DNA of 64,000 nt, from NCBI RefSeq assembly GCF_050920415.1, contig NZ_CP169309.1; one strand, written 5' to 3'. How positions within the stretch are numbered: the first letter of the stretch is position 1; the number at the start of each line of letters is the position of its first letter. A model generated the notes under the pieces. That model did no database searches and was not told the DNA's origin. It saw only the letters and a program-made list of their open reading frames with translations. Positions 32,441-56,572 of this stretch are shown piece by piece. This DNA comes from Escherichia coli. Lineage in GTDB: Bacteria; Pseudomonadota; Gammaproteobacteria; Enterobacterales; Enterobacteriaceae. A program made the translations under genes and the position numbers.

Positions 32441-32564
32441 TAAAAGCGTGTTATACTCTTTCCCTGCAATGGGTTCCGTAGCAGGGAAAGAGACCCCGTT
32501 GTCTCTTCCCGGTATTTCATCTCTATGTCACATTTTGTGCGTAATTTATTCACAGCGTTGCATT

Positions 32565-40044: not shown

Positions 40045-40758
40045 ATGGAAAAAGTCATGTTGTCCTTTGACAAAGTCAGTGCCCACTACGGCAAAATCCA
40101 GGCGCTGCATGAGGTGAGCCTGCATATCAATCAGGGCGAAATTGTCACGCTGATTGGCGCGAACGGGGCGGGGAAAACCACCTTGCTCGGCACGTTATGT
40201 GGCGACCCGCGCGCCACCAGCGGGCGAATTGTGTTTGATGATAAAGACATTACCGACTGGCAGACGGCGAAAATCATGCGCGAAGCGGTGGCGATTGTCC
40301 CGGAAGGACGTCGCGTCTTCTCACGCATGACGGTGGAAGAGAATCTGGCGATGGGCGGCTTTTTTGCTGAACGCGACCAGTTCCAGGAGCGCATAAAGTG
40401 GGTCTATGAACTGTTTCCACGTCTGCATGAGCGCCGTGTTCAGCGGGCGGGCACCATGTCCGGCGGTGAGCAGCAGATGCTGGCGATTGGTCGCGCGCTG
40501 ATGAGCAACCCGCGTTTATTGTTGCTTGATGAGCCATCGCTCGGTCTTGCGCCGATTATCATCCAGCAAATTTTCGACACCATCGAGCAACTGCGCGAGC
40601 AGGGGATGACTATCTTCCTCGTCGAGCAGAACGCCAACCAGGCGCTAAAGCTGGCAGATCGCGGCTATGTGCTGGAAAACGGTCATGTCGTGCTTTCCGA
40701 TACCGGCGACGCGCTACTGGCGAATGAAGCGGTGAGAAGTGCGTATTTAGGCGGGTAA
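40045..40758 (+). CDS. livF: Branched-chain amino acid ABC transporter ATP-binding protein LivF (237 aa)
   Basis: ATG directly after livG stop; Walker A GANGAGKTT, signature MSGGEQQM. Confidence 0.9.
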   Translation: MEKVMLSFDKVSAHYGKIQALHEVSLHINQGEIVTLIGANGAGKTTLLGTLCGDPRATSGRIVFDDKDITDWQTAKIMREAVAIVPEGRRVFSRMTVEENLAMGGFFAERDQFQERIKWVYELFPRLHERRVQRAGTMSGGEQQMLAIGRALMSNPRLLLLDEPSLGLAPIIIQQIFDTIEQLREQGMTIFLVEQNANQALKLADRGYVLENGHVVLSDTGDALLANEAVRSAYLGG

Positions 40759-40819
40759 TAACACGTTGATTGATAAGGAGTCAAAAGACTCCTTTGAGAC
40801 AGGTTACAAATGTAAAATT

Positions 40820-40918
<99 letters not shown>

Positions 40919-41018
40919 ATGAAACGATGAGCAATCTGTAGAGTTTGATTCAGACCTTCTATTTTTCCCGCTTATCCGTGCCCCATCTCCCAATTTCCCT
41001 CACCTACGCCGTCACTGC

Positions 41019-41094
41019 CTTGTCATCTTTCTGACACCTTACTATCTTACAAATGTAACAAAAAAGTTATTTTTCTGTAATTCGAGCATGTCAT
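41019..41094 (+). promoter_or_regulatory. ugpB promoter region with putative PhoB boxes
   Basis: CTTGTCATCTTTCTGACAC (41019-41037) and CTGTAATTCGAGCATGTCAT (41075-41094) resemble the CTGTCAT-type pho box direct repeat. Confidence 0.5.
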
Positions 41095-41155
41095 GTTACC
41101 CCGCGAGCATAAAACGCGTGAATTCGCGCATTCGGTACAACAAGAGAGATAAACG

Positions 41156-42472
41156 ATGAAACCGTTACATTATACAGCTTCAGCACTGGCGCTCGGACTG
41201 GCGTTAATGGGGAATGCACAGGCAGTGACGACCATTCCGTTCTGGCATTCTATGGAAGGGGAACTGGGTAAAGAGGTGGATTCTCTGGCCCAACGTTTTA
41301 ACGCCGAAAACCCGGATTACAAAATTGTACCGACCTATAAAGGCAACTACGAACAGAATTTAAGTGCGGGGATTGCCGCATTTCGTACCGGCAACGCGCC
41401 TGCTATTTTGCAGGTTTATGAAGTTGGCACCGCCACCATGATGGCGTCGAAAGCCATTAAACCGGTGTATGACGTGTTTAAAGAGGCGGGGATTCAATTC
41501 GATGAGTCGCAGTTTGTGCCGACGGTTTCAGGTTACTACTCCGACAGCAAAACCGGTCACTTACTCTCCCAGCCGTTCAACAGCTCGACTCCCGTTCTCT
41601 ATTACAACAAAGACGCCTTCAAGAAAGCGGGGTTAGACCCGGAACAGCCGCCGAAAACCTGGCAGGATCTGGCAGACTATGCCGCGAAACTGAAAGCCTC
41701 TGGTATGAAGTGCGGCTACGCCAGCGGCTGGCAGGGCTGGATCCAACTGGAAAACTTTAGCGCCTGGAACGGTCTGCCGTTTGCCAGCAAAAACAACGGC
41801 TTTGACGGCACGGACGCGGTGCTTGAGTTCAACAAGCCGGAGCAGGTGAAACACATCGCCATGCTCGAAGAGATGAACAAGAAGGGCGATTTCAGTTACG
41901 TAGGGCGTAAGGATGAATCTACCGAGAAGTTCTATAACGGTGATTGCGCGATGACGACCGCCTCTTCGGGTTCTCTTGCCAACATTCGCGAGTACGCCAA
42001 ATTCAACTACGGCGTAGGCATGATGCCATACGACGCCGACGCGAAAGATGCGCCACAAAACGCCATTATCGGCGGAGCCAGCCTGTGGGTGATGCAGGGC
42101 AAAGATAAAGAAACTTACACCGGCGTGGCGAAGTTCCTCGACTTCCTCGCGAAGCCAGAAAACGCTGCCGAGTGGCATCAGAAAACCGGTTATCTGCCAA
42201 TCACCAAAGCGGCGTATGACCTGACCCGTGAGCAGGGCTTTTACGAGAAAAACCCAGGGGCGGATACCGCGACGCGTCAGATGCTGAACAAGCCGCCGTT
42301 GCCGTTCACCAAAGGGCTGCGTCTGGGCAATATGCCGCAGATCCGCGTGATTGTGGATGAAGAGCTGGAAAGCGTGTGGACCGGTAAGAAGACGCCACAG
42401 CAGGCGCTGGATACCGCTGTTGAGCGTGGGAACCAGTTACTGCGCCGCTTTGAGAAATCTACGAAGTCTTAA
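41156..42472 (+). CDS. ugpB: Periplasmic sn-glycerol-3-phosphate binding protein UgpB
   Basis: 438-aa ORF with signal peptide [23 protein letters not shown]. Confidence 0.95.
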
Positions 42473-42550: not shown

Positions 42551-42569
42551 AGTTCAGGAATTAACCGTA

Positions 42570-43457
42570 ATGTCATCATCCCGTCCGGTGTTCCGCTCGC
42601 GCTGGCTGCCTTATTTGCTGGTCGCGCCGCAGCTTATCATCACCGTTATCTTTTTTATCTGGCCTGCGGGCGAAGCGTTGTGGTACTCGCTACAAAGCGT
42701 CGATCCGTTTGGCTTTTCCAGCCAGTTTGTCGGCCTGGATAACTTCGTCACGCTGTTTCATGACAGCTACTATCTCGACTCCTTCTGGACGACGATAAAA
42801 TTCAGCACCTTTGTCACGGTCAGCGGTTTGCTGGTGTCGCTGTTCTTCGCGGCGCTGGTGGAGTATATCGTGCGCGGCAGCCGTTTCTATCAAACCTTAA
42901 TGCTGCTGCCGTATGCCGTGGCTCCCGCCGTTGCCGCCGTATTGTGGATCTTCCTGTTTAACCCTGGTCGCGGGCTGATCACTCATTTTCTCGCTGAGTT
43001 CGGCTACGACTGGAACCATGCGCAAAACAGCGGTCAGGCAATGTTCCTGGTGGTGTTTGCCTCAGTATGGAAGCAAATCAGCTACAACTTTCTGTTCTTC
43101 TATGCCGCGCTGCAATCCATTCCCCGTTCGTTGATTGAAGCCGCAGCCATCGACGGTGCAGGCCCGATTCGCCGCTTCTTTAAGATTGCGCTGCCGCTTA
43201 TCGCCCCGGTGAGCTTCTTCCTGCTGGTGGTGAACCTGGTGTACGCCTTCTTCGATACCTTCCCGGTGATCGACGCCGCCACGTCCGGCGGGCCAGTACA
43301 GGCCACCACGACGCTGATTTATAAGATCTACCGCGAAGGCTTTACCGGACTGGATTTGGCTTCATCTGCCGCGCAGTCGGTGGTGTTGATGTTCCTCGTC
43401 ATCGTGCTGACGGTGGTGCAGTTCCGCTATGTTGAAAGCAAGGTGCGTTACCAATGA
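42570..43457 (+). CDS. ugpA: sn-glycerol-3-phosphate ABC transporter permease UgpA
   Basis: 295-aa hydrophobic ORF, operon position. Confidence 0.95.
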
Positions 43458-56300: not shown

Positions 56301-56572
56301 TCTTTATTCATTAAATCTGGGGCGCGTTGCCGCCCCTGTTAGTGCGTAATACAGGAGTAAGCGCAGATGTTTCATGATTTACCGGGAGTTAAATAGAGCA
56401 TTGGCTATTCTTTAAGGGTGGCGGAATACAAGAGTATTTACAGCCTTACCTGAAGTGAGGACGACGCAGAGAGGATGCACAGAGTGCTGCGCCGTTCAGG
56501 TCAAAAAAATGTCACAACCAGAAGTCAAAAATCCAGTTGGATGGGGTGACACAATAAAACAGGAAGACAAGC

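Follow-up and report, generated by a model that had tools for sequence, protein, structure and literature searches.

A phased array of PhoB half-sites and a putative extended -10 element upstream of ugpB in Escherichia coli

A Pho box consists of two 7-bp CTGTCAT repeats separated by a 4-bp AT-rich spacer. It can equally be described as two 11-bp tandem units, each of which is bound by one PhoB protomer (PMC4447250). The ugpB promoter is among the most strongly occupied sites of this kind. In PhoB ChIP-seq its peak score of 35 is second only to that of pstS (38), and the peak centre (NC_000913.3 position 3592453) lies 128 bp before the ATG (PMC10294691). PhoB also matters for expression: ugpB RNA drops from 54,461 in the wild type to 2,830 in a phoB deletion, about 19-fold lower (PMC10294691). 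Phosphate-starvation induction of ugpB has been reported in EHEC, Citrobacter rodentium and Salmonella as well.

Two ugp promoters have been described. According to a review that summarises Kasahara 1991, the downstream promoter carries multiple Pho boxes and the upstream promoter a cAMP-CRP consensus (PMC4415409). Gao and Stock report that the output of a ugpB reporter falls at high levels of phosphorylated PhoB (PhoB~P). They attribute the fall to an overlapping alternative ugpB promoter, presumed to be repressed by PhoB~P; a phoB promoter reporter shows a similar fall (PMC4447250). Our own literature search by promoter sequence found only the two ChIP studies discussed below, and searches for mapped transcription starts or earlier descriptions of the ugpB leader yielded no useful result.

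The ugp regulatory region is therefore familiar ground. It is a textbook Pho-regulon promoter, and recognising it here is correct but unsurprising. The promoter is already in use as a phosphate-controlled expression part, and the significance of our analysis is small beyond correct annotation. The useful outcome is a corrected map of the region: three phased Pho boxes with an extra half-site, a putative extended -10 element, and a candidate upstream promoter that the array overlaps.

The locus and its phased half-sites

We analysed a 64,000-nt stretch of E. coli DNA (the window), which contains the livKHMGF and ugpBAECQ region. The annotated gene order is livK-livH-livM-livG-livF, a 397-bp spacer, and ugpB-ugpA-ugpE-ugpC-ugpQ. 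Positions 41019-41094 lie within the known ugp regulatory region. A 541-bp query around this site matches RefSeq chromosomes with 100% identity, and the gene annotated under the match is ugpB. This gene starts at 41156, the equivalent of position 3592325 (minus strand) in NC_000913.3. Of 5426 complete E. coli genomes, 5424 carry a single copy of the 153 bp preceding ugpB, with an identity of at least 95%.

The corresponding region of E. coli K-12 is the same locus and differs in nothing substantive. Between 40963 and 41156 the only differences from K-12 are three SNPs (40993, 41005 and 41016), all of them upstream of the three Pho boxes. Hence, 41019-41094 is wholly identical to K-12. Apart from these SNPs, our strain deviates only in the REP-containing spacer further upstream. 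Here, livF and the ugp promoter are separated by REP/BIME-type repeats (40802-40925), with sub-threshold Rfam matches to the REP-derived families naRNA4 and ES036. A query that includes these repeats has a median of 25 matching places per E. coli genome, and an indel relative to K-12 falls within them.

To describe PhoB sites, we built a position weight matrix (PWM) from 58 ChIP-seq motifs of Fitzgerald et al. 2023 (PMC10294691), leaving out ugpB, and scanned both strands. Within 40990-41130 the plus strand scores above zero at six positions only (41010, 41021, 41032, 41043, 41054 and 41065), which keep an exact 11-bp register. The region thus contains seven half-sites in strict 11-bp phase (41010-41081): CGTCAC, TGTCAT, TGACAC, TATCTT, TGTAAC, AGTTAT and TGTAAT. 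Together the six in-phase 18-mers sum to 61.8 bits. Elsewhere on the plus strand there is at most 1, and the array is the only one of its kind in the 64-kb window. None of 5000 dinucleotide shuffles of the intergenic region reaches 61.8 bits. The summed score is positive only for a step of 11 bp and turns negative when the step is set to 8-10 or 12-14 bp.

Counting words leads to the same place. Five heptamers with at most one mismatch to CTGTCAY occur on the plus strand of 40990-41110, compared to 138 on the plus strand of the whole 64 kb (about 0.26 expected per 121 bp). The half-site cluster upstream of ugpB is not due to chance.

Table 1. Features in and around the ugpB promoter region (positions are those of the window).
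Feature	Position	Strand	Basis or score
Extra upstream half-site CGTCAC (k6), in phase with the array	41010..41015	+	18-mer 41010-27, 10.4 bits; half-site 6.5
Distal Pho box (box 3), TTGTCAT-CTTT-CTGACAC	41020..41037	+	PWM 15.7 bits at 41021-38
Candidate sigma-70 promoter P2: -35 TTGTCA 41020-25, 17-nt spacer, -10 TATCTT 41043-48	41020..41048	+	9/12 matches
Middle Pho box (box 2), CTATCTT-ACAA-ATGTAAC	41042..41059	+	PWM 9.6 bits at 41043-60; ChIP-chip motif
Proximal Pho box (box 1), AAGTTAT-TTTT-CTGTAAT	41064..41081	+	PWM 8.0 bits at 41065-82
Putative extended -10 of P1: TG 41089-90, n 41091, hexamer CATGTT 41092-97	41089..41097	+	Conservation and offset
Predicted transcription start of P1	41103..41106	+	Purines 6-9 nt beyond the putative -10 hexamer
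ugpB coding sequence, first gene of ugpBAECQ	41156..42472	+	ORF list; RefSeq annotation of a 100% identical genome

The array contains three 18-bp Pho boxes, which we number 1 to 3 from proximal to distal (Table 1). For comparison with their scores, the training sites range from 6.9 to 24.0 bits (median 15.5). Each box has the 4-bp A/T-rich spacer (CTTT, ACAA and TTTT, from distal to proximal). Each has also been called independently in published work, because the published ChIP-seq, ChIP-chip and Salmonella motifs each match a different box. The ChIP-seq motif for ugpB, TGTCATCTTTCTGACACC, is exactly 41021-38 in the distal box, and the peak centre maps to 41028 (PMC10294691). The ChIP-chip motif, CTATCTTACAAATGTAAC, located at -105.5 from the start codon, is 41042-59, the middle box (PMC3465305). 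The Pho box listed for Salmonella ugpB, AAGTTATTTTTCTGTCATTCGA (Table S3 of PMC10715179), is the homologue of 41064-85, where the proximal box lies.

The distal box ranks third among about 128,000 positions, and the two higher scorers are themselves training sites of the PWM. It is a near-perfect inverted repeat, TGTCA-N6-TGACA (41021-41036). On the minus strand it scores 11.1 bits, so that binding of PhoB in either orientation is conceivable.

The initial annotation had proposed PhoB boxes upstream of ugpB, consistent with Pho-regulon control of the operon, in the form of two CTGTCAT-like direct-repeat units. Both strings are present, CTTGTCATCTTTCTGACAC at 41019-41037 and CTGTAATTCGAGCATGTCAT at 41075-41094. 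The general proposal is borne out and had been established experimentally before, by ChIP-seq, ChIP-chip and RNA measurements in a phoB deletion. The proposed anatomy holds only in part. The first unit is a genuine Pho box, namely the distal one, as its 7-4-7 layout with 11-bp geometry, its PWM score and the ChIP-seq motif show. The second unit was divided wrongly, as discussed below, and the annotation included neither the middle box nor the half-site with which CTGTAAT pairs upstream.

Other PhoB sites occur in the window. Two more published ChIP-seq motifs are located at 32515-32532 (TTTCATCTCTATGTCACA, ftsX-rpoH intergenic) and at 56499-56516 (GGTCAAAAAAATGTCACA, just before glgB). Both sites are bound by PhoB, and the expression of the adjacent genes is unchanged in a phoB deletion (PMC10294691). 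A further PWM match of 13.0 bits, ATTAACCGTAATGTCATC at 42560-42577, lies at the ugpB-ugpA junction and overlaps the ugpA start codon. No separate ChIP-seq peak is reported there (PMC10294691), and the match is probably due to chance.

Conservation and the downstream end of the array

We retrieved 80 ugpB loci, nearly all from Enterobacterales genera (one is labelled Aeromonas), of which 79 upstream regions were analysable, including that of the window. In 77 of these 79 regions we find the same arrangement: a proximal half-site [TC]GT[AC]A[TC], exactly 7 nt, and then TGnCATnnT. The 7-nt spacer is constant in length over the 77 loci and occurs in 32 sequence variants. TGn reads TGT in 73 loci and TGG in the remaining 4. 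For the hexamer we find CATGTT (73 loci), CATGGT (2), CATTTT (1) and CATCTT (1); A2 and T6 never change. The proximal box as a whole, GTTATTTTTC-TGTmAT, is likewise kept in 77 of the 79 Enterobacterales loci.

Conservation extends upstream along the array. We anchored the regions on the proximal half-site and determined, for each in-phase hexamer, the fraction of loci with a PhoB half-site score above 2 (background 0.025). This fraction is 1.00 at offset 0 bp (k0), 0.05 at -11 bp (k1), 0.97 at -22 bp (k2), 0.77 at -33 bp (k3, the first half of the middle box), 0.40 at -44 bp (k4), 0.66 at -55 bp (k5) and 0.59 at -66 bp (k6, 76 orthologous regions). Further upstream it is 0.20 at -77 bp and 0.05 at -88 bp. 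At k1 the hexamer AGTTAT scores about 0 as a PhoB half-site, although the position is invariant across loci as GTTATTTTTC. E. coli itself is unusual, with a degenerate unit at -33 (TATCTT) and a strong unit at -55 (TGTCAT). Most other genera have the consensus TGTCAy at -33, and their strongest 18-mer is the middle one.

The conserved element downstream of the array is probably the -10 region of the PhoB-dependent promoter P1. We read TG (41089-90) together with CATGTT (41092-97) as an extended -10 element, because TGnCATnnT is conserved at constant spacing and because its offset of 16 nt is common to other Pho promoters. Counted from the start of the last half-site, the ugpB hexamer begins at an offset of 16 nt, and so do those of pstS (TATTTT), phoA (TATAGT), phoB (CATAAT), phoE (TAAAAA) and phnC (CACGAT) in K-12. 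The distance from the proximal box to this putative -10 is invariant in the 77 loci, as befits a PhoB-activated promoter. On the other hand, CATGTT matches TATAAT at only 3 of 6 positions. By analogy, the proximal box would occupy the -35 region of P1.

PhoB binds upstream of ugpB in vivo and is needed for its expression. The distance between the end of the conserved, helically phased array and a conserved -10-like element is fixed. We consider it highly probable (about 0.88) that 41010-41097 is the PhoB-activated promoter P1 of ugpBAECQ, with an array of seven half-sites, three Pho boxes and an extended -10 element.

The leader that follows is also conserved. Positions 41102-41131 (CGCGAGCATAAAACGCGTGAATTCGCGCAT) are almost invariant across Enterobacteriaceae genera, as strongly conserved as the proximal Pho box. 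The leader motif CGArCAwAAAA persists into Yersinia, Serratia and Erwinia, and there is a small GC hairpin or palindrome at 41116-29. An Rfam search of 41100-41155 gave no match at E <= 1. RNAalifold predicts only a 4-bp hairpin in the leader (-3.9 kcal/mol), unsupported by compensatory pairs. Folded singly, the sequence does not outperform its shuffles (z +0.47), and a literature search found nothing that describes the conserved leader 41102-41131. A frame of 23 codons (41088-41159) begins with the ATG of ATGTCAT, and its TGA overlaps the start codon of ugpB. The frame is not conserved, because 1-nt indels disrupt it in other genera, and its ATG lies upstream of the predicted P1 start. We therefore rejected an upstream open reading frame.

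Alternative readings and the upstream promoter

The second unit of the initial annotation, CTGTAAT and ATGTCAT at 41075-94, was proposed as a Pho box. If so, it would bind a PhoB dimer across an unusual 6-bp spacer, as a 13-bp repeat. Both heptamers have at most one mismatch to CTGTCAT, and both are strong isolated half-sites (8.1 and 9.2). However, they start at 41075 and 41088, an offset of 13 bp, whereas PhoB sites are defined as 11-bp tandem repeats (PMC4447250), a geometry shared by all 59 ChIP-seq motifs (PMC10294691). With the PWM, this pairing (the 18-mer from 41076 onwards) does not exceed 0. The PWM joins CTGTAAT, which is in register with six upstream half-sites, to the AGTTAT upstream of it instead, and the published Salmonella motif likewise pairs its half-site with an upstream GTTAT (PMC10715179). 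Furthermore, in four species the second word is TGGCAT, so that the half-site is lost while TGn and CATGTT are kept. A 13-bp Pho box is extremely improbable. The ATGTCAT at 41088-94 coincides with the TGnCATGTT that is invariant across the order, and the TGG variants, which abolish a PhoB half-site yet keep the extended -10, favour the extended -10 reading. Most likely the second unit combines two different elements, the last half-site of the proximal box and the putative extended -10. Pairing TGTCAT-like words without checking the 11-bp register yields the wrong site. PhoB may still touch this position, because the TGTCAT at 41089-94, taken alone, is a perfect half-site (9.2). The word could then have a dual role, as part of the extended -10 and as a lone, out-of-phase PhoB half-site of low affinity that damps P1 at very high PhoB~P. 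Such a role would explain the down-turn of the ugpB reporter (PMC4447250). Among the six Pho promoters examined only ugpB has a consensus half-site over its -10 (9.2 vs at most 2.3), and the invariance of all nine bases of TGTCATGTT exceeds what a weak -10 usually needs. Yet the reporter study ascribes the fall to the inhibition of the overlapping promoter (PMC4447250), and the phoB promoter falls likewise without such a half-site. TGTCAT also lies 13 bp rather than 11 bp from the array, which makes cooperative binding unlikely, and 4 of 77 loci carry TGG. We regard the dual role as unlikely. The -10 could also lie further downstream, at GAGCAT (41105-10), in which case TGTCAT would be an activating promoter-proximal half-site 16 nt upstream of it. 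The 16-nt rule fits this pair as well, and GAGCAT has both A2 and T6. In other species, however, T6 is frequently absent from the corresponding hexamer (GAACAA, GAGCAC, GAACAC), which also shifts by 1 nt relative to TGTCATGTT from genus to genus. In addition, TGTCAT has no partner half-site 11 bp upstream (TAATTC). GAGCAT is a very unlikely -10, and we rejected it for its poor conservation and variable spacing in favour of the extended -10 at 41089-97.

At the other end of the array, the candidate promoter P2 (Table 1) lies under boxes 3 and 2. It is the sole promoter-like match in 40740-41200, but the match alone proves nothing, because shuffles give 0.9 such matches on average. Judged by sequence, its position fits the published upstream CRP-dependent promoter that is inhibited by PhoB. 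CRP-like candidates with 2-3 mismatches to TGTGA-N6-TCACA are found at 40977-92, 41021-36 and 41045-60, which is not above chance. The second of these, the inverted repeat TGTCA-N6-TGACA of the distal box, might be the cAMP-CRP site of a carbon-starvation promoter, instead of or besides a Pho box. It has only 2 mismatches to the CRP consensus, and a CRP-dependent promoter has been described for this region (PMC4415409). At such stringency, however, matches are no commoner than chance: the scan of the 64-kb window gave 163, compared to 207 expected from shuffles, and singled out no site. A positional scan across the 77 loci likewise found no conserved CRP-like position apart from look-alikes of the Pho half-sites. 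Both mismatches, moreover, fall on the G/C pairs of TGTGA/TCACA, which are critical CRP contacts. Under low phosphate, PhoB ChIP-seq is centred on this very site (PMC10294691). A CRP site at 41021-36 is highly improbable, and we retain the distal Pho box.

Proposed regulation and comparison with other Pho promoters

The map suggests how the promoter may work. Under phosphate limitation, phosphorylated PhoB dimers would bind head-to-tail on one helix face. Three such dimers, possibly with an extra protomer at 41010-15, may occupy this face of the DNA. By analogy, the proximal dimer would substitute for a -35 hexamer and recruit the sigma-70 holoenzyme to the weak extended -10, TGtCATGTT. Transcription would then start near 41103-41106. 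The distal dimers would add affinity and occlude the upstream promoter: the array would cover the candidate P2, in agreement with the published model of an upstream carbon-starvation promoter that is silenced by PhoB.

The closest described relatives share most of this layout. In Salmonella enterica the proximal box reads AAGTTATTTTT-CTGTCAT-TCGA, where that of E. coli reads AAGTTATTTTT-CTGTAAT-TCGA (PMC10715179, Table S3). The E. coli half-site TGTAAT thus has an A in place of the Salmonella C at the fourth base.

The pstS promoter of E. coli, like that of ugp, has several half-sites in an 11-bp phase; its 18-mers at -116, -105, -94, -83 and -72 score positive with the PWM. In both promoters the -10 hexamer follows the start of the last accepted half-site by 16 nt. 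The boxes of pstS are near-consensus (24.0 and 16.0 bits), whereas ugp has more boxes of lower strength (15.7, 9.6 and 8.0 bits). Unlike pstS, ugp has a putative TGn extended -10, a hexamer that does not resemble TATAAT, and an overlap with a second promoter.
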